Source: Betaproteobacteria bacterium (GTDB taxonomy: Bacteria > Pseudomonadota > Gammaproteobacteria > Burkholderiales > Burkholderiaceae_D). From it: a stretch of DNA of 64,000 nucleotides. How positions within the stretch are numbered: the stretch's first letter is position 1; each line of letters starts with the position of its first letter. This document shows positions 11,182-23,661 of this stretch, piece after piece. Made by a program: the position numbers and the translations under genes. The notes beneath the pieces are model-generated. The model saw only the letters and a program-made list of their open reading frames with translations, did not search any database and was not told the origin of the DNA. The stretch lies in contig JABDED010000003.1 of NCBI GenBank assembly GCA_013287275.1, positions 11,225 to 75,224 of the forward strand, given 5' to 3'.

Positions 11182-11351
11182 TATGTTTCCTTAAAACTAA
11201 TTCTTGATGCTTGTTATTGGGTAGCGGGTATTTTTTACCGGCTGCCCTTGCATTTCCGCATGACACCTCAATGCGTACAGGCGCCATTTTACTTGTTCTG
11301 GCACTGAAAATTGATGACAAATAAATCTGAATTTCTTTTTTCAAAAAAAAC

Positions 11352-14717: not shown

Positions 14718-16640
14718 TTACTGGTCGCCTCCAGAGGCGGTAGTTGTTTCTATTGCCGCCTGGTTGATGGTTACTTTTGCTTTTTTCTTCAGGTTTTCCA
14801 CATAAGAAAACATGTCCTGCTGCGCCTGGGCGCCATCCAGCTGCGTCCTCTCGCTGGCGCGGCGGGCTTCGTCCGGCGTGCCGGCGCGGACCTTGCTGAT
14901 GCGGTAGACCACATAGCCATTGCCTGGCGCTTCTATGCCTACAAAAGCCGGCAATTTTTGCGTGTCGGCCTTCAGCAAGTCTACCAGGGCCGGGCCGGGA
15001 ACGTCCTGGTTTTTCAGGCGGGAAATCGTTTTGGTGTCGGAAAAGCCGGCAGTATTGTCAGCCGCCTTCAATGCCTGCAATTTCGCTTCGCCTTCTTTTT
15101 TCGCCAGTGCGGCAGCCTCTGCCTGCGTAACGGCGGCAGTGATGGTCGCCTTCACTTCTTCAAACGGACGCTTGGACGCGGGCTTGTATTCCACGACATG
15201 GCCGGCGATCAAGGTCGATGGAGCTGCTTCCACCGCATCGGTATTCAGCTTTTTCTTGATCGCGCTATCGCCGAAAATCGCGGTCAGGAATTTCTGGTTA
15301 TTGGTCAGCACCGTCGGCGGCAAAGCCGGGTTAGGTTTACGGGTCAGGCCTTCCACGGTCTGTATCTTCAGCTTCAGCTTGTCCGCAACCGGCTTCAGGC
15401 TGTCCGCCTGCTCATACACGGTATTGGTGAAGGTTTCCGCCGCTTCGGCATAGGCCTTGGACGCTTTTTGCTTCTTGATCTCGGCAACGATGGCCGGCTT
15501 GACTTCTTCCAGCGGCTTCAGCGCGGCAGGCTTGATCGCGGTCAGCTGGATGATGTGGTAGCCGAAATCCGATTGCACGACGTCACTGATCTCGCCTTGC
15601 TTCAGTTTGTAGGCAGCGTCTTCGAATGGCTTGACCATGGCGCCCTTGCCAAAGAAATCCAGGTCGCCGCCGCGTTCTGCGGAACCGGTATCGGCAGAAT
15701 TTTCCTTGGCCAGTTTGGCAAACGAAGCAGGATTCTTGCGCACTTCGGCCAACAGGCTTTCCGCCTTGGCTTTGGCTGCCGCCTTATCCTTGTCGCTGGC
15801 GTCTTTCTTGACCTCGATCAGGATATGGCTGGCGCGGCGTTGCTCTTCAGTGCTGTAGTTCTTCTTGTTTTGCTCATAATAGGATTGCACGTCCGCATCG
15901 CTCACGTCAATCTGGGCTGCCAGCGAGTCATTGCTCAGCACCACATATTCTGCCTTGATCGCTTCGGGAATCTCAAACATCGCGGCATTCTTGTCGTAGT
16001 ATGCCTTCAGCATTTCATCGGTGACCTTGACCTTGGATGCATAGTCGGCCGCCTTGAATATCAGGGCCTGGACGTCACGCTCCTGCTCATTCATTGCCGA
16101 CAGGTTGGCAGCCACTGTTTTTGGCACGAAGGCGCTGCCCTGCACTGCATTCACCAGTTGCTGGTACACCAGATCCTGGCGCAGGCGCTGCTCGTAACCG
16201 GCCGTGCTCATGCCCTGCGAAGCCAGGATGCTCTTGTAGCGCTCTGCATCAAAACTGCCGTCTGGTTTCACCAGGCCCGGCGTCGACAGGATGTTTTGCT
16301 GCAAAACCTGGTCCGGGATGCTCAAGTGGTTTTTGGCGACTTCCGCATTCAGTGCGTGCTGGGCTATCAGGTTGTCCAGTATGCTTTTCCGAGCTTCCGG
16401 CGTATTCAGCATCTTGCTGTCGAACTGCGCGCCATACATCTGGCGCATGCGATCTATCTGCTCGCGCTGGGCGATATTGAATTCCTGCTGGCTAATCGAC
16501 TTGCCGCCGACTGTCGCAACGCCGCCGCCGTCCTGGAAGGATTTATAGCTGAATACGCCGCCAGCCACGAAGGACGGGAAAATAATGAGCAGCAACAGAA
16601 ACTGCATCAAGCGCTGATGTGTACGGATATACTCAAACAT
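14718..16640 (-). CDS. ppiD: Peptidyl-prolyl isomerase D (SurA N-terminal plus parvulin domain)
   Basis: N-terminal [23 protein letters not shown]; 640 aa; downstream of hupB-tRNAs. Confidence 0.9.
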
Positions 16641-16685
16641 GTTCGACCGATCACTAGAATAAAACTAAGCTAAGGCTACCGAATA

Positions 16686-16716
16686 TAAAAAAAGGCGAAC
16701 TCGCGTTCACCTTTTT
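16686..16716. terminator. Terminator-like hairpin upstream of ppiD
   Basis: aaaaaaaggcgaac-tcgc-gttcacctttt. Confidence 0.55.
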
Positions 16717-16991
16717 GATTTTTGACGGCACGTGCGGGTGGGTGAAAAATGCCTCAAACCATCACAAGCATCAATATAATCAAAGACTTAGTAGCATTAT
16801 TAATTAATAAGCAACAGGAAAATTGTCGCCAATCCCCGTTACGACTGCTAAACGATCTGCGATTTTATCAGTGTTTTCCGGCTTGTTGCACTGGTAAAAA
16901 CAAAAAAGCACCTGCTCCGGTGCTTTTTATGCCTGCATTCATGGAATTTGGCCGGGTCTGGCCGCACTTCCCCATCTGGAATACACAGCCC

Positions 16992-17426
16992 TTAGCTTGC
17001 AGCCCGCGCCTTGGCAACGAGTGCGCCGAATTCCTCGCGGCCAAAGGCAGTACCGGCCAATCCCCAACCGCCTTCGGCCGCTTCGGTGAGCAGCACCCAG
17101 GTACGCCCGGCCTGGGTCGGGTCGCCGGAAATTTTCGTCACGATCTCGGTCACTTCCCTGACTAGCTGCTTCTGGCCATCGCGGCTCAGCGCCGCCGGCG
17201 GCGTCACGACCTGAACGCGCACGGTACGCGCCAGCGCGGTGGCGGCGGTTTGCACCGCGGCCGAATCCATGCGGTGAATGTAGGCGGCCGTATTATTCAA
17301 GTGAAAGGCTCCGGGGCTGGCCACACCCTCGGCACGGAGTACCGCCAGCGTAAGTTCTTCGCCAAGCTGGCGGTCGGTGCCGGCGGGGAACAGGTCGGCA
17401 GCTGCGTAAACGTCGATCATGGGCAT
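16992..17426 (-). CDS. Tautomerase-superfamily protein
   Basis: Pro after Met (MPMIDVY), duplicated beta-alpha-beta pattern, TWVLLTE..EGGWG. Confidence 0.7.
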   Translation of the reverse strand: MPMIDVYAAADLFPAGTDRQLGEELTLAVLRAEGVASPGAFHLNNTAAYIHRMDSAAVQTAATALARTVRVQVVTPPAALSRDGQKQLVREVTEIVTKISGDPTQAGRTWVLLTEAAEGGWGLAGTAFGREEFGALVAKARAAS

Positions 17427-17481
17427 GGCTAAACTCCTCGGTATAAAGTAACAATGCTGGAAACTACGGCAGTTTTACACA

Positions 17482-18345
17482 TCAAAACTTGCCGTTCGGA
17501 TTCTTCCATTCGGCGCGCGGCGGGATGGCTTCTATGGTGTCCCAGTGCTCGGCAATTTTGCCGTTCTGGATACGATAAAGGTCGTAATACGCCGACGGGC
17601 GGCCACCGAAAGAACCTTCTGCCACGACCAGGACGAAATTACCCTCTGCCAGCACCTGGCGCACCCTGCCGTATTTCACGACCAGGCCCTGTTTGGCCAG
17701 CGCCTGCAACCCTGCAAACAGGCCGCTCAGCTGGTCCGCCACCAGCGGGCTGTGCTGGATATAGTTGCCGCCATCAAAGTAGCCGGTAAATTTTTCCTTG
17801 CGTCCCTGCAGCAGGTCGTCCATATACACCTGCATCAGGGCCTTGTTGGCGGCAGTCTTGTCCAGGTCGGAGGCGGTGGCCGGCCCATCGGTCATCGTAT
17901 GGCCGCTGGGGCTGGGCTTGGCGGCGGCCTCTTGCAGATTGTCCCAATGCTCGACGATCTTCCCGCTTTCAAAACGGAAAATATCGAAGCCGGTTTTGGG
18001 GCCGAAGAAATTGTATTCCGTATGCGCGAACACGAAATCGCCATCCTGGAAAACCCGCACCGTGTTGACCCTGGTTGTTCCCTTGGGCAGCGATTGCAAC
18101 AGGGCTTTGACTCCGGGCAAGCCATCGGCTACGGCCAGGTTGTGCTGAATGTATTTGTCAGGGTTGATGTAGGCGATCGGCCTGCTATCGCCGGTTTCTA
18201 TACTCTTCAGCAACTCGACGACCTGCTGCTTGTGGTCGGGTGCAACTGGTTTGTCGTGCGCGGACTGCGGATTTGCCGTACACGCGGCGAGTGCAAAAAC
18301 GCCGGCGGCAAGCAGGCATGAGCGTACAGGATAGCTGAAGTACAT
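17482..18345 (-). CDS. Tandem SnoaL/NTF2-like lipoprotein
   Basis: Lipobox LAAC; two YIQH...(D/F)IFR..GKI.EHWD repeats. Confidence 0.8.
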   Translation of the reverse strand: MYFSYPVRSCLLAAGVFALAACTANPQSAHDKPVAPDHKQQVVELLKSIETGDSRPIAYINPDKYIQHNLAVADGLPGVKALLQSLPKGTTRVNTVRVFQDGDFVFAHTEYNFFGPKTGFDIFRFESGKIVEHWDNLQEAAAKPSPSGHTMTDGPATASDLDKTAANKALMQVYMDDLLQGRKEKFTGYFDGGNYIQHSPLVADQLSGLFAGLQALAKQGLVVKYGRVRQVLAEGNFVLVVAEGSFGGRPSAYYDLYRIQNGKIAEHWDTIEAIPPRAEWKNPNGKF

Positions 18346-18440
18346 GTTGATCTCCCGGTTCAGCGCCTGCACAAGGAAGAATATCCCAGGGTGGGCGGCG
18401 ATTTGTAATGGCAGTGCTCTTGGCAACATTGGCCTTGTGA

Positions 18441-18454
18441 ATGATGACCATCAT
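18441..18454. promoter_or_regulatory. Candidate TetR operator
   Basis: Palindrome ATGATG-AC-CATCAT in the divergent intergenic region. Confidence 0.5.
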
Positions 18455-18518
18455 CCTTGTAAATGATGATGTCGAATATAATCCTCATTGTCAAGCCCCA
18501 TCTGGAGGAATTTTTTAT

Positions 18519-19091
18519 ATGGGCCATTCAAAGGCAGACAAAGCCAAAAGCCACGAACGCATAGTGCGGGTGGCAGCCAGCCGATTCCGCGAAACCGGCG
18601 TCGACGGCATAGGCGTGGCCGATCTGATGAAAGATGCCGGTCTCACCCACGGCGGGTTTTACCGGCACTTTGATTCGCGCGAAGAGCTGGTGGCGGAAGC
18701 AGTAGAGTGCGCGCTGCAAGACGGCAGTGAGGCGGTCGCCGCCGTGGCCAGGATCAAGCAAGCCCCTCTGGCTGCCGTGATAGACGCCTACCTCAGCATG
18801 GTGCACCGGGATAACCTGGCCGCCAGTTGCGCCGTCACCACCATGGCGGCCGACGTTGCGCGCAGCAACGAGCGGGCGCGCTCGGCGTACACGCAGCAAG
18901 TTGGCGTCTACCTGGATTTGCTGACTACGCTGATTCCCGGCGACAAGGAAAAGACCCGGCGGATGAAGGCGATTGCCGCACTATCCACCCTGGTCGGCGC
19001 AATATCGATGGCGCGCGCAGTAAACGACGAAAAACTATCCCGCGAAATTCTCAAATCCGCCGCTGACGAATTGAAGGCCCAGCTTGGCTAA
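18519..19091 (+). CDS. TetR/AcrR family regulator
   Basis: GVADLMKDAGLTHGGFYRHFDSREEL HTH; SD ggagg. Confidence 0.92.
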   Translation: MGHSKADKAKSHERIVRVAASRFRETGVDGIGVADLMKDAGLTHGGFYRHFDSREELVAEAVECALQDGSEAVAAVARIKQAPLAAVIDAYLSMVHRDNLAASCAVTTMAADVARSNERARSAYTQQVGVYLDLLTTLIPGDKEKTRRMKAIAALSTLVGAISMARAVNDEKLSREILKSAADELKAQLG

Positions 19092-19125
19092 AGTCCTTGC
19101 CATCCATGCCTGGATTCCCTGAAAA

Positions 19126-19608
19126 TCACGAAGAGCCTTGAAATGGGCCGCCGGGCTCCCCCCAGCCCCAGCGAGGCATAGGTTCGCCTGGCTTCATATC
19201 AATTTCCGTCTCCTGCGAATTAATAACCGCTATTCGCGTGCCCCATTCAATATAGGCGGCAAATGCCGAACGGAATTCAGGGTCGTCCGGCAAATTAATT
19301 TCATCCGCCGTTTCCACTAAAAGCTGCACCCATTTTTTTCTGTGCTGCTCCGTCAGATGCTTGCCCAGGTGCTTTTGGATCATCTTGAAATGCGTCCCTT
19401 CCGCGGAACTATACATTTTGGGGCCACCAAAAACTTCCGCGATAAAGTGCGCCACATGCAGCTGGTGCTCGGGAGACATGTGCTTGAACACAGGCTCCAA
19501 AAATTCATCCAATAAAACTTTTCTATAAAAAGCATTCATCAGTTTTTCAAATACCGGCATGCCTCCGGCCCATTCATAAAGCGTTGGAACGTTTTTTTCG
19601 GTGACCAT
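19126..19608 (-). CDS. Group II truncated hemoglobin
   Basis: TLYEWAGG, FY..V..D..L.PVF, EVFGGP..Y, H, EQHRKKW. Confidence 0.85.
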   Translation of the reverse strand: MVTEKNVPTLYEWAGGMPVFEKLMNAFYRKVLLDEFLEPVFKHMSPEHQLHVAHFIAEVFGGPKMYSSAEGTHFKMIQKHLGKHLTEQHRKKWVQLLVETADEINLPDDPEFRSAFAAYIEWGTRIAVINSQETEIDMKPGEPMPRWGWGEPGGPFQGSS

Positions 19609-19841
19609 TTTTGTTTACCGTCCTCAGGTTTTCAATATCCGATTTTATTTGATCGCGCAGCAAGAAAAACTGCGTAAAGTTACTGCTTGCTTCCTTAAAC
19701 ATTTGCAGGGTGTAAGATCGTAATGCCGCTTCCTCGAGCTGTTTCATGCCGGATACAGACACACAAGTTAAAACGAACGAAGCTCGAAATCAATAACTTA
19801 CCAAAAAGTAGGTCAGACCATGGATGGTTTTGGAAAAGACG

Positions 19842-20207
19842 ATGATTAAACTGAATAATAGAATTTATACCTGCCCCATCGACGTCACGCTTGGTTTTAT
19901 AGGCGGCAAATGGAAATTGCTGATCCTTGCCCATCTTCATCAATTCGATAAAAAGAGTTATGTCGAATTACGGGATAATCTTCCGGGGATATCAGAAAAA
20001 ATGCTGAGCCAGCAGTTAAAAGAACTGGAGCGGGACAGCCTGATAGAAAAAGACATCTTGTCGTCAAAACCCTACAGGGTCGAATATTTTCTATCGAATG
20101 ACGGAAGATCCCTTGGCCCTTTATATGAAATCGCCAGCGCCTGGGGAATAAGTCATTTAAAAAAGCACGGTATCGACTATTTGAAGGATCAGCATTTATA
20201 CAAATAA
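19842..20207 (+). CDS. HxlR-family winged-helix regulator
   Basis: CPIDVTL..IGGKWK, GISEKMLSQQLKELE, RVEY. Confidence 0.9.
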   Translation: MIKLNNRIYTCPIDVTLGFIGGKWKLLILAHLHQFDKKSYVELRDNLPGISEKMLSQQLKELERDSLIEKDILSSKPYRVEYFLSNDGRSLGPLYEIASAWGISHLKKHGIDYLKDQHLYK

Positions 20208-20230
20208 CCGATAATTTGAAATGCTTCAGG

Positions 20231-20974
20231 TTAAGCCGCACTGCAGCGGTACCAGTAGCGGTAAGCCGGGGTAAACCCCAAGCTTTCATATAAGCCTATC
20301 GCCGGCATATTGCACGCGGCGACCTGCAAATAAGCGGTCCTGGCGCCATGCTGCCTGGCCTCGTCCAGGAGCTCCGCCATCAATGCACGGGCATGGCCGC
20401 GCCGACGTAGCACCGGATCGGTGTTGATGTCAAAAATGCCGGCATAGTCGCCGTCAATCACCGCCAGACCAATAGCCGCATAGCCCTCCCCTGTTTGCAT
20501 GCCGCCGTAGACGGCCGGCAAAGCCAGCCTCTTTAGCAATTCAACGTGCTTCTGTTTTCTCTCCGGAGATCCCTGATCGAGGAGCATCATTTGCGAAAAC
20601 CATGTTTCAGCATCCGGCTGATGCAATTCTGAGTTAGTGCTCGCCATGGGATGATCAAGCGGCTTCATCAATACCAGGCTATCGTCTATGCGCTGCAGCC
20701 CTTCGCGCTCGAGGCAGGCGTCAAGCTCCAGGTTTTGCGGGTGGTCTGTCAGCCTGAATGTCAACGGCAAGCCTTGCTGCTGAAATAGATGTTCGCAGTA
20801 GCGTATTTTTTGTGCGAAGGGAATTGCCGATGCAGTCAGGACATTGACAGAGTTTGCTCGTTTCGGCCCACCGCCAGCCAGGCGGATCAGCCATCCGTCG
20901 TATAACAGGGTTTGAATGGAAGGCAGGCTGTTGAAGCCGGCTTCTTCGATTCTCCGGTGGAGCGGAGGTAACAT
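20231..20974 (-). CDS. GNAT family N-acetyltransferase
   Basis: DGWLIR..GG.KRANSV, RRRGHA, YLQV...N..AIGLY..LGF. Confidence 0.85.
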   Translation of the reverse strand: MLPPLHRRIEEAGFNSLPSIQTLLYDGWLIRLAGGGPKRANSVNVLTASAIPFAQKIRYCEHLFQQQGLPLTFRLTDHPQNLELDACLEREGLQRIDDSLVLMKPLDHPMASTNSELHQPDAETWFSQMMLLDQGSPERKQKHVELLKRLALPAVYGGMQTGEGYAAIGLAVIDGDYAGIFDINTDPVLRRRGHARALMAELLDEARQHGARTAYLQVAACNMPAIGLYESLGFTPAYRYWYRCSAA

Positions 20975-21110
20975 GCTTGAAGTTCCTATGCGAAGCAAAT
21001 ATAAGCGACGAATGATTGCGCAGAGGAAGGAGCGTAGCACAGGCATCCGGGAGACTGAAGCCGATGCCTCCATCCGGAAATGAAAAAGGCAGATAGTTCT
21101 ACGATGCTGT

Positions 21111-21562
21111 GCCCGCAAGCGGGCATTCATGTAAGTACAAATAAAAACGCCCGCTTGCGCGGGCATTTGTATTCTTGGCGGAGTGGACGGGACTCGCCCA
21201 CACTTTGCAGGCCGCTGAATCGCTGGTAAGCGATTCCCTTCGAGTCCCGCCGGAAGCCGCGCAGGCGGCTTCCTCCACTCCGCAAAGTGCGATGCCCGCA
21301 AGCGGGCATTTATTTAAGTACAAATAAAAACGCCCGCTTGCGCGGGCATTTGTATTCTTGGCGGAGTGGACGGGACTCGCCCACACTTTGCAGGCCGCTG
21401 AATCGCTGGTAAGCGATTCCCTTCGAGTCCCGCCGGAAGCCGCGCAGGCGGCTTCCTCCACTCCGCAAAGTGCGATGCCCGCAAGCGGGCATTTATTTAA
21501 GTACAAATAAAAACGCCCGCTTGCGCGGGCATTTGTATTCTTGGCGGAGTGGACGGGACTCG
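21111..21562 (-). repeat. tRNA-Asp-linked 183-bp tandem repeat (about 2.5 units), each unit with tRNA 3' end and terminator
   Basis: Unit starts at 21111, 21294, 21477 (exact 183-bp period); tggcggagtggacgggactcg at 21176, 21359 and 21542 (the last is the tRNA itself). Confidence 0.95.
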
Positions 21563-21618
21563 AACCCGCGACCCCCGGCGTGACAGGCCGGTATTCTAAC
21601 CAGCTGAACTACCACTCC
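21542..21618 (-). tRNA. tRNA-Asp (GTC)
   Basis: GGAGTGGTAGTTCAGCTGGTTAGAATACCGGCCTGTCACGCCGG...TTCGAGTCCCGTCCACTCCGCCA, 77 nt. Confidence 0.98.
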
Positions 21619-21648
21619 TAAGATATTGCATTATGTTGAACAGTTTTA

Positions 21649-21724
21649 TGGTGGGCGCTGAGAGGCTCGAACTCCCGACCTAAGCCTTGTAAGGGCTCCG
21701 CTCTACCAACTGAGCTAAGCGCCC
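21649..21724 (-). tRNA. tRNA-Val (TAC)
   Basis: GGGCGCTTAGCTCAGTTGGTAGAGC...CTTACAA...TTCGAGCCTCTCAGCGCCCACCA, 76 nt. Confidence 0.97.
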
Positions 21725-21776
21725 CACGCACAACACTGACAACATGGTGGTGCTTGTCACCGCACCACGAAGTCCA

Positions 21777-22049
21777 TTAGTTTACAGCATCTTTCAAAGC
21801 TTTGCCAGGCCTAAATTTAGGAACTTTGGCCGCCTTGATCTTAATTGCATCGCCTGTACGAGGATTACGGCCTGTCCTGGCGGCACGTTTGCCTACGGAA
21901 AAGGTGCCGAAACCTACCAAAGTGACTGTGCCATTCTTTTTCAATGTCGTTTTTACCGCAGCAATCACTGCGTCCAGTGCGCGTGACGATGCAGCTTTGG
22001 AAATGTCCGCAGTTTTCGCAATGTGATCGATCAATTCAGTTTTATTCAC
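21777..22049 (-). CDS. hupB: DNA-binding protein HU
   Basis: [35 protein letters not shown]; precedes tRNA-Val/Asp and ppiD. Confidence 0.93.
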
Positions 22050-22440
22050 TTACGCCCCCTCACAAAAGTTTGACTTCGCAACGATGTATCCGATTATTTT
22101 ATTTGTCGAGCATCCATCACGGCAAGCAGAAAATCTGCAGCCAGTATTAAATCAAGCGGCAAAGCCTTGTGTCAAGCGGTTTGCGTATTTTCATTACAAT
22201 CTATGCCGGTTTTTCATATTAAATCGAAAGTATAATTTCGGCTATCCATTTCGGCGTGAATCGGCTGGTGTCAATGCGAGGCACATACTGGCCGGCACTG
22301 GCAAAACATCCGATAATCGCACGCCCTGATACCATGCATGCCCGGAATATTGCGCTGCCATATTCCGTCATGCAGTTTCCAGGCCGATGTGACAGCGCCG
22401 ATGCCAGCCGCTTCCCGCTACTATTTCCTACTACTTACTA

Positions 22441-23661
22441 ATGACTATGAACACGATAAAACGACTGGGCACGCCTTTATCCCATACTGCAACCAAGGTA
22501 ATGCTGCTGGGATCCGGCGAACTGGGCAAGGAAGTGATTATCTCACTGCAGCGGTTGGGTGTAGAGGTCATCGCCGTGGACCGTTATGAGAATGCGCCCG
22601 GCCACCAGGTCGCCCACAGGTCGCATGTCATCGATATGACGGACGGCGCGGCCCTGGCAAAACTGATAGAGCTGGAGCAACCGGACCTGGTAGTGCCGGA
22701 GATAGAAGCTATCGCCACTCCTACCCTGGTAGAGCTGGAAAATGCCGGCAAGGTCCGAGTCATACCTACAGCGCGCGCCGCATGGCTGACAATGAACCGG
22801 GAAGGAATACGGCGCCTGGCGGCAGAAACCCTGTCCCTGCCGACATCGCCGTACCGCTTTGCCGACAGCCTGGCGGAACTGAAGGCAGCTTGCACGGCCA
22901 TCGGCTTCCCCTGCATCATCAAACCCGTCATGTCCTCGTCCGGCAAGGGCCAGTCCAAAATCGACAACGCCGACGAAGTGGAAGCCGCGTGGAACTATGC
23001 GGCCGCCGGCGGCCGCGTCAACTCCGGTCGCGTCATCGTCGAAGGCTTTATTGATTTCGACTATGAGATCACACAACTGACGGTGCGTGCGATAGGCAAG
23101 GACGGCGCAGTGGAAACCCATTTCTGCGATCCGATAGGTCATGTTCAGGTACACGGCGACTACGTAGAATCCTGGCAGCCGCAAGCAATGCACAGCAAGG
23201 CGCTGGAGCGCGCACGCGACATCGCCAAGAAAGTCACCGACGACCTGGGTGGCCTGGGCCTGTTCGGTGTCGAACTGTTCGTCAAGGACGATATGGTCTG
23301 GTTCTCCGAAGTCAGCCCGCGCCCGCACGATACCGGCATGGTGACGATGGCCAGCCAGGTACAGAATGAATTCGAACTGCATGCGAAGGCTATCCTGGGC
23401 CTGCCTGTGAATGTCGCATTGAAATCACCCGCCGCTTCTGCCGTCATTTACGGCCAGCACAATGAGAAGGCGATTGCGTTTGAAGGCGTGGCAGAGGCGC
23501 TGCAAATCCCAGGCGTGGATATACGTCTATTCGGCAAGCCTGAGTCCTTTACTCGTCGAAGGATGGGCGTGGCGCTGGCTGTGGCGGCGGATACGGATAC
23601 CGCGCGCGAGATTGCCAAGCGCGCCGCGGCTACCGTGAAACCGGTGGTAGTGCCCAAATAA
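22441..23661 (+). CDS. purT: Formate-dependent phosphoribosylglycinamide formyltransferase
   Basis: [49 protein letters not shown]. Confidence 0.96.

Follow-up and report, generated by a model that had tools for sequence, protein, structure and literature searches.

A tandem array behind tRNA-Asp in Undibacterium points to a family of probable RtT-like trailer RNAs in Burkholderiales

Introduction

What is the element that repeats the 3′ end of a tRNA gene, and the terminator behind it, in tandem and directly downstream of that gene? The question is raised by a 64,000-nt stretch of DNA (hereafter the window; positions 11,225 to 75,224 of contig JABDED010000003.1, assembly GCA_013287275.1, from a genome of the genus Undibacterium), in which a 183-bp array holding two 106-nt units follows a tRNA-Asp gene. 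A first-pass annotation of this sequence had proposed that the units fold into CCA-ended mimics of a tRNA acceptor, and that they may yield processed tRNA-like small RNAs or constitute a tRNA-targeting mobile element. We consider it reasonably probable that the array holds two copies of a structured RNA from an uncatalogued family: an RtT-like trailer, transcribed together with its tRNA, which the tRNA maturation enzymes would turn into a CCA-ended mimic of the acceptor and T arm.

RtT (RF00391, rttR) comprises the 178-bp repeats distal to tyrT/tyrV of Escherichia coli. It has been known since the first tRNA genes were sequenced and has been regarded as a peculiarity of enterobacteria, and to our knowledge it has no accepted function. 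No description of the family considered here was found in the literature searched.

Structure of the array

The array was located by Tandem Repeats Finder at positions 21110-21562 of the minus strand (period 183, 2.5 copies, 99% matches, score 892), directly 3′ of a tRNA operon composed of tRNA-Val(TAC) (21649..21724; 69.8 bits with the Rfam tRNA model) and the host gene tRNA-Asp(GTC) (21542..21618; 68.8 bits), both on the minus strand and both called by ARAGORN. Each 183-bp period consists of a 77-nt flank and a 106-nt unit. Flank copy 1 (21465..21541) carries an intrinsic-terminator-like hairpin with a T-run (21534-21511) and then a second hairpin, and unit 1 (21359..21464) accordingly begins 77 nt past tRNA-Asp. 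Flank copy 2 (21282..21358, terminator at 21351-21328) and unit 2 (21176..21281) have the same sequences as flank copy 1 and unit 1, respectively, and a partial flank copy 3 of 66 nt (21110..21175, terminator at 21168-21145) ends the array. The unit coordinates given in the first-pass annotation were borne out, as were its statements that the copies are identical and that each unit is followed by the same type of terminator as the tRNA: the two full periods are 100% identical to each other, and three terminator-like hairpins are present, one after tRNA-Asp and one after each unit.

tRNA-Asp and the units share a common suffix of 21 nt, which in the tRNA runs from T-loop C56 through CCA (21562-21542); the tail of unit 1 (21379-21359) matches the tRNA at 21/21 positions. 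The source assembly is a short-read metagenome-assembled genome (MAG; 56% complete, 181 contigs), in which repeats of 183 bp and 100% identity cannot be counted reliably, and the copy number in the window is therefore uncertain. Such arrays are real, other genomes carrying arrays of one to three units.

Each period also contains an ATG-initiated open reading frame (ORF) for a basic, Arg-rich protein of 60 amino acids (21127-21309 and 21310-21492, minus strand); it runs across the non-conserved flank and is probably spurious.

Predicted fold of the unit

The fold computed for the unit has a free energy of -65.2 kcal/mol, against -42.7 +/- 3.5 kcal/mol for 200 shuffled sequences (z = -6.3). It contains five helices, given here for unit 1 on the minus strand. 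P1, of 7 bp (GGAGUGG/CCACUCC), pairs 21464-21458 with 21369-21363 and is followed by GCCA (21362-21359). P3, of 9 bp, pairs 21433-21425 with 21378-21370, and thus uses the 3′ strand of the T-loop and T-stem. The remaining helices are hairpins: P2 (9 bp, 21456-21435), P4 (8 bp, 21419-21400) and P5 (7 bp with a conserved G.U, 21395-21379). Short conserved joints, AAGG and GCG, lie between the helices. Both the acceptor-stem mimic (GGAGTGG/CCACTCC with GCCA) and the second 9-bp stem noticed at first pass are present in this fold. Two internal hairpins had also been described; both exist, whilst the supposed 20-nt spacer is a third conserved hairpin, P5, bringing their number to three.

The units are not called as tRNAs, ARAGORN finding the true tRNAs only and the Rfam tRNA model (RF00005) giving no match to the units at E ≤ 10. 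The Rfam check envisaged for the array returned no family other than tRNA, either within window positions 20500-22500 or in a Burkholderia copy of the unit.

A different pairing was seen in the minimum free energy fold of a read-through transcript (21100-21620, minus strand), where the 5′ arm of unit 1 pairs with the tail of the real tRNA-Asp and not with its own. Counting the conserved AA, the 5′ arm can pair with tRNA positions 54-72, a complementarity 2 nt longer than that to its own tail.

Homologous units and their host tRNAs

A third unit was found on another contig of the source genome, behind tRNA-Ser(GCT). It is likewise 106 nt long and aligns without gaps to the array unit at 87% identity, yet its last 21 nt are those of the tRNA-Ser 3′ end and its 5′ arm is altered to pair with them, preserving the same fold. 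A covariance model (R1) was built from these two sequences; it scored unit 1 at 123.3 bits (E 2e-25). Strong matches to it occurred in about 13 of the 60 Undibacterium genomes examined and, outside the genus, in a single genome belonging to another family. In a pattern scan, each species was represented by one genome and the matches were filtered by covariance model; this added at least Herbaspirillum, Herminiimonas, Massilia, Noviherbaspirillum, Pseudoduganella, Burkholderia, Cupriavidus and several MAGs. Many pattern matches in GC-rich Actinobacteria were rejected by the covariance model as chance occurrences.

Models R1 and R2 together yielded at least 62 units from Undibacterium and other genera. 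A tRNA gene on the same strand lies 7-260 nt upstream of 51 of the 62 units listed, the remainder being at contig ends or displaced, such that every member listed sits behind a tRNA or is displaced from one. Seven tRNA species serve as hosts among the units listed, namely tRNA-Asp, tRNA-Ser (GCT, GGA, TGA and CGA), tRNA-Glu and tRNA-Leu(CAA). In 39 of these 51 units at most one of the 21 tail positions differs from the host tRNA, and at least 16 distinct 21-nt tails were recognised, each being the 3′ end of its own host tRNA. The expectation that homologues at other tRNAs would change their 5′ half to fit the host tail was clearly realised, both in the tRNA-Ser unit and across the 16 tails.

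An even sample of the order gave matches in 3 of 150 genomes, and an even sample of the class, searched with model R2, in none of 150; runs of this size score only part of the candidates, so that absence is not demonstrated. These counts place the family, within what was searched, in a few lineages of Burkholderiales. From these placements, its members would appear to reside in tRNA operons, as 3′ trailer or spacer elements, in part of that order (Oxalobacteraceae-type genera, Burkholderia and Cupriavidus).

A tRNA-Asp with a unit nearly identical to the Herminiimonas/Undibacterium type was also encountered in a MAG labelled Candidatus Paceibacteria (L120, 6719-6822). That contig is most likely misbinned Oxalobacteraceae and not true Paceibacteria.

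Covariation and strand specificity

Base pairs were counted across 54 aligned model hits, comprising 50 different sequences. Cells of the alignment were paired in 94.1% of cases, against 74.7% in shuffles and 36-49% when partners were slid, and the covariation score was 0.50, against 0.15 in shuffles and at most 0.11 with slid partners. Compensatory double changes occurred in 30 of 40 pairs (360 cells). For P3, the helix formed with the T-stem strand, 93.9% of cells were paired and six of the nine pairs showed double changes; at T-loop position N59 all four bases occur among the hosts, and the P3 partner compensates every time. Taken together, these data support the five helices and indicate a structure under selection in preference to a repeat artefact.

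The pairing is also specific to one strand. G.U pairs filled 115 cells and A.C combinations 29 (101 and 12 with P1 left out), and one G.U of P5 is present in 48 of 49 sequences. The excess of G.U over A.C assigns the fold to the tRNA-sense strand, which speaks for an RNA, or at least for a single strand, rather than for inverted repeats in a duplex. The covariance modelling suggested at first pass thus describes the unit as a conserved, strand-specific structured element with an acceptor/T-arm mimic and not as a chance fold.

How the 5′ arm came to fit the tail can be examined at six loci in which the tRNA acceptor contains a wobble pair. At these, the arm of the unit is the Watson-Crick complement of the tail and does not reproduce the 5′ strand of the tRNA; the arm is therefore not a duplicated tRNA 5′ end. 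In the tRNA-Ser unit of the source genome the tail tracks the tRNA, whilst the arm still fits the tRNA-Ser variant of a sister species. Such a lagging arm fits a course in which the tail would be homogenised before the arm undergoes compensatory change.

Lineages of units and their genomic setting

In Burkholderia, Cupriavidus and Massilia, too, tRNA-Asp and ppiD have Asp-type units between them. Undibacterium, Burkholderia and Cupriavidus agree in every one of the first 46 nt of their Asp-type units, with flanks that share nothing, and the differences in P4 of Asp-type units elsewhere are exclusively compensated ones. More generally, cores are 88-97% conserved between genera in which the flanks are unalignable. 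When the host-independent core (P2, the joints, P4 and P5) was compared, the nearest neighbour was found at the same tRNA type in another genome for 33 of 54 units, and at another tRNA of the same genome for only four of 54. The units therefore constitute old lineages, each tied to one type of locus, with occasional exchange; an example of the latter is the Asp unit of the genome G014, which carries the P2 type of that genome's own Ser units.

The arrangement in Massilia horti is tRNA-Asp, 9 nt, unit, 18 nt, tRNA-Asp, 7 nt, unit and then a terminator. Because the units are 7-18 nt from tRNA-Asp genes with no terminator between, they must be part of the operon transcript.

In Burkholderia semiarida, a full unit and a duplicated 82-nt flank are followed by the first 22 nt of a second unit (L089, 7741-7762), unique sequence and ppiD. 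This array is truncated in another phase than that of the window.

Relationship to RtT and other tRNA-like RNAs

The tyrT-tyrV region of E. coli, included as a positive control, contains four RtT units that score 133-137 bits with RF00391 (gathering threshold 45 bits), each ending in the last 19 nt of tRNA-Tyr. RF00391 found no match at E ≤ 10 in window positions 20500-22500, nor did it match the Burkholderia copy at E ≤ 1, and its best match in the whole source genome reached 17.4 bits, elsewhere than at the units. Model R2 in turn scored E. coli RtT at 8.8 bits (E 0.17). As homology was not detectable in either direction, the present family is a variant of the RtT kind and not a member of RF00391.

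The two are nonetheless alike in design. Both form tandem repeats in the trailer of a tRNA operon, on the tRNA strand, and in both the tRNA 3′ end, CCA included, is reproduced exactly at the end of the unit (19 nt in RtT, 21 nt here). The multi-hairpin fold is closed in each case by pairing between a 5′ arm and the T-stem strand derived from the tRNA: the Rfam consensus of RtT, which is typed Cis-reg, has GGGGAAGGAU as the 5′ arm and pairs it to AUCCUUCCC of the tail, the counterpart here being P3. A short Arg-rich ORF overlaps the repeat in each case, tpr ('protamine-like') in E. coli and the 60-amino-acid ORF in the window. RtT differs in its length of approximately 130 model positions, the present family having five helices in 106 nt, and in its last 9 nt, which are unpaired, whereas most of the present units add the 7-bp acceptor-stem mimic and so resemble a tRNA end with discriminator and CCA. 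Intrinsic terminators between units are found in the present array, unlike RtT. The view that a complementary 5′ half sets the units apart from RtT consequently stands for the acceptor part, P1, which is additional; it does not stand for the T-stem strand, with which the RtT consensus already pairs its arm.

In Actinobacillus, RtT-family RNAs located beside tRNA-Asn and tRNA-Lys genes were detected by Northern blotting (PMC4986893), and RtT is listed among conserved RNAs in Xanthomonas (PMC3300014). What the present family appears to add is the RtT design in a different bacterial order and at seven tRNA species, with the acceptor-stem mimic as a new part that is missing in some lineages and that would make the product resemble the CCA-ended top half of a tRNA. 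The question of what RtT-like RNAs do becomes testable in tractable genera such as Burkholderia, Cupriavidus and Herbaspirillum.

An acceptor stem with CCA stacked on a T-arm-like helix, lacking an anticodon arm, is also found in the tRNA-like domain of transfer-messenger RNA (tmRNA) and in YrlA, and the present units share this likeness. The tmRNA domain and YrlA, however, are encoded by single dedicated genes and have a true T-loop and fixed sequences; in the present units the 3′ strand is a copy of that of the neighbouring tRNA, the T-loop is replaced by the P4/P5 fork, and no Rfam family matched. The attachment-site repeats attL and attR of islands are similar in being direct repeats of a tRNA 3′ segment starting from the T-loop, and a decayed repeat of this sort bounds the 4.4-kb insertion in the window. 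Such scars are bare and decaying, whereas the units possess a covarying 85-nt body and intact tails, with no linked integrase. For annotation this has practical consequences: the units are missing from Rfam, short-read assemblies break at them behind tRNA genes, and a tail may be mistaken for an island attachment scar.

Expression and proposed maturation

The RNA-sequencing material consisted of assembled (Logan) contigs of public runs, and stretches not covered by a contig were not counted as evidence. In one true RNA-Seq library, a 215-nt contig covers a Burkholderia-type unit at a depth of 20, the contig of HU and tRNA-Val having a depth of 384, which is a weak hint of co-transcription. Two runs, X4 and X1, were rejected as expression data; with their flat depth and contigs of 17-20 kb they are DNA-like and silent on transcription.

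In the mechanism that we propose, a unit would be transcribed together with its tRNA, by read-through of a leaky terminator in the window or with no terminator intervening in Massilia. In units that possess P1, RNase P would cut at G1, and the 3′ side would be cleaved downstream and trimmed to CCA as in a tRNA; given that the tail and flank are the same as those of the tRNA, 3′ maturation of the unit is expected to be like the tRNA's. The predicted product is a stable RNA of approximately 106 nt that shows the acceptor/T-arm end of the cognate tRNA but has no anticodon. The array and its duplicated local terminator could have arisen from unequal recombination between repeated tail-plus-flank segments. 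Selection or short-patch conversion would hold the tail to the tRNA sequence, and compensatory mutation would bring the 5′ arm into line with it.

As to activity, the most likely one, proposed with low confidence on the analogy of RtT, would be to compete for or titrate factors that read an uncharged acceptor-CCA end. A broader proposal, which we regard as speculative and rather doubtful, is that E. coli RtT and the Burkholderiales family are convergent or very distant members of a single class of 'tRNA-end mimic' RNAs, each copying the 3′ end of its cognate tRNA. Their shared role in trans would be to show an uncharged acceptor-CCA end, or a sequence antisense to T54-72, to tRNA-reading factors (candidates being stringent-response sensors, CCA or 3′-end enzymes and tRNA-targeting toxins), whilst the units would additionally act as recombination points at which islets are captured.

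Alternative explanations

Several observations weigh against the proposed trailer RNA. The alignment on which pairs were counted had been fitted to the model, which favours structure, although the margins over the controls are large. The Logan contigs carry no RNA ends, strand or level. No promoter-like site was found on the minus strand and a good intrinsic terminator precedes each unit, so that expression of the units in the window depends on read-through. P1 is absent from Glu-type units and from the Asp-type units of Massilia and Herminiimonas, making the acceptor mimic an elaboration and not an essential part, with the core reduced to P2-P5 and the tail. Units can also decay, as seen at the second Asp locus of the Undibacterium genome G016 and, separately, in truncated or tail-less copies, and the absence of a unit from the tRNA-Asp locus of about 26 of 30 Undibacterium genomes shows that it is dispensable. 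Strand-specific pairing, finally, would fit a folded intermediate of single-stranded DNA too.

This last point leads to the possibility, unlikely in our judgement, that the unit is a DNA recombination module, that is, a non-autonomous integrative element or attachment-site-like cassette. Its tail would be a copy of the attachment site, P1 and P3 would rebuild the duplex of the tRNA end in single-stranded DNA, and a tRNA-specific recombinase acting in trans would excise and integrate circles, which would generate arrays and capture islets; folded single strands that rebuild recombination sites are known from integron attC sites and CTX-phage DNA. Every unit is indeed flanked by direct repeats of tail and local flank, as Campbell-type integration leaves, and the array in the window heads a 4.4-kb insertion without an integrase, the far end of which carries a decayed tRNA-Asp tail and the ancestral terminator. 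A displaced unit beside foreign cargo in Burkholderia sp. BCC0044 (PAAR-like by eye), a truncated unit in G016, the mostly exact complementarity of the 5′ arm to the tail and the patchy distribution within the genus agree with this as well. The flank, however, is always local and never carried from another locus, and the cores form lineages specific to each tRNA type, only four of 54 being nearest to a unit at another tRNA of the same genome. P2, P4 and P5 covary, keep their G.U and are linked by conserved joints, for which a recombinase site has no need; P1 tolerates G.U in Burkholderia and trails the tail in the Ser unit of the source genome, as mutation and selection predict; the Massilia units lie between tRNA genes inside an operon; and no integrase or transposase is nearby (among the islet ORFs scanned). 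Nor does the source genome, with only the array and one tRNA-Ser unit, show the pattern of a miniature inverted-repeat or other non-autonomous transposon, for which terminal inverted repeats, short target duplications and copies at many unrelated sites would be expected; the confinement of the members listed to tRNAs or places displaced from them, and the strand-specific pairing, speak against it as well. The tRNA-targeting mobile element suggested at first pass hence fits poorly, in view of the tRNA-type-specific core lineages, the strand-specific pairing with its conserved G.U and the lack of a nearby integrase or transposase, even though recombination at the tail has shaped the locus.

An RNA acting purely in cis is a further alternative, which we also hold to be improbable. 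Here the unit would supply a second tRNA-like end and terminator, on which RNase P, RNase E and 3′ exonucleases act to release the tRNA, and would insulate genes further downstream, ppiD among them, with no function in trans. Such a role accords with the constant position in a trailer or spacer on the same strand, with the presence in each unit of the tRNA's own tail and flank and hence of the same 3′ maturation signals, with the complementarity of the arm and AA to T54-72 of the upstream tRNA, whose tail it pairs in the minimum free energy read-through fold, and with the Cis-reg type of RtT in Rfam. Most tRNA operons, and the roughly 26 of 30 orthologous Undibacterium loci, nevertheless do without a unit; conservation of P2, P4 and P5 across families exceeds what a simple processing site needs, and tandem copies add no insulation. 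That the array is instead a neutral relic, a scar of tRNA gene duplication or island integration amplified by slippage and with unselected structure, is very improbable and already strongly disfavoured. The 100% identity of the two copies, indicative of recent amplification, the decayed tail at the far end of the islet and the visible decay of some units would suit a relic, and tRNA 3′ ends are classic sites of island integration. Against it stand compensatory changes at 30 of the 40 pairs, backed by strong controls, the 88-97% conservation of cores between genera with unalignable flanks, and the tails, which match at 21/21 positions in complete units but at only about 10/17 in the solitary displaced tail.

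The 4.4-kb insertion and displaced units

The HU gene (21777-22049, minus strand) lies upstream of the tRNA operon, tRNA-Val being the operon's first gene. Downstream, the array adjoins an islet of approximately 4.4 kb (16739..21109, minus strand), which was analysed with Pfam and by comparison of 30 orthologous loci. It encodes a GNAT protein (20231-20995), a globin (19126-19608), a TetR regulator (18441-19091, plus strand), a SnoaL-like protein (17482-18429) and a small ORF (16992-17426). No recombinase, integrase or transposase was identified among the islet ORFs scanned against Pfam, the small ORF being outside that scan. The GNAT protein was considered as a tRNA-acetylating toxin partner of the units and rejected, because it is an islet-encoded protein of the Rv0428c_C type and the neighbours of units elsewhere are unrelated.

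The distal border of the islet is a decayed tRNA-Asp 3′ tail (16723..16738, minus strand; CCCGCACGTGCCGTCA against CCCGTCCGCTCCG-CCA), joined directly to the ancestral tRNA-Asp terminator and ppiD leader (approximately 16641-16722, minus strand), which are followed by ppiD itself (14718..16640, minus strand). In other Undibacterium, and in Burkholderia, Cupriavidus and Massilia, ppiD follows tRNA-Asp with or without a unit, and in about 26 of the 30 Undibacterium genomes only tRNA-Asp, one terminator and ppiD are found, with nothing between. Since ppiD in the window is preceded by an ancestral terminator joined to a decayed tRNA-Asp tail, the array and islet together constitute an insertion at the tRNA 3′ end, the borders of which appear to carry the repeat signature of Campbell-type integration. 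No clean empty site was definable at the Asp locus because the clade of the source genome (G000), G109 and G016 has a different downstream region. From the repeats at their borders, recombination at tRNA tails seems clearly to shape these loci, and would explain the arrays, the locally duplicated flanks and the displaced or truncated units found elsewhere.

Two such displaced units were inspected. In G016 (L047, 1260-1460), a unit cut down to P5 and tail, a terminator and a full unit of the Ser-GGA type follow unrelated DNA, which also holds a decayed tRNA-Glu tail. In Burkholderia sp. BCC0044 (L052, 2640-3250), a full Ser-GGA-type unit follows a coding region judged by eye to be PAAR (type VI secretion system)-like, with no tRNA within 900 nt upstream in the 5,250 nt of sequence available to view. 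Both look like the far ends of insertions at tRNA tails.

The source genome has a second tRNA-Val/tRNA-Asp locus (contig C123; L005, 686-915) with a terminator-type flank like that of the array and no unit. A decayed unit remnant had been considered at this locus and was dropped, the alignment showing the shared terminator-type flank only. The corresponding second locus of G016 (L050, 1129-1231) holds a diverged, decaying unit that scores 47 bits.

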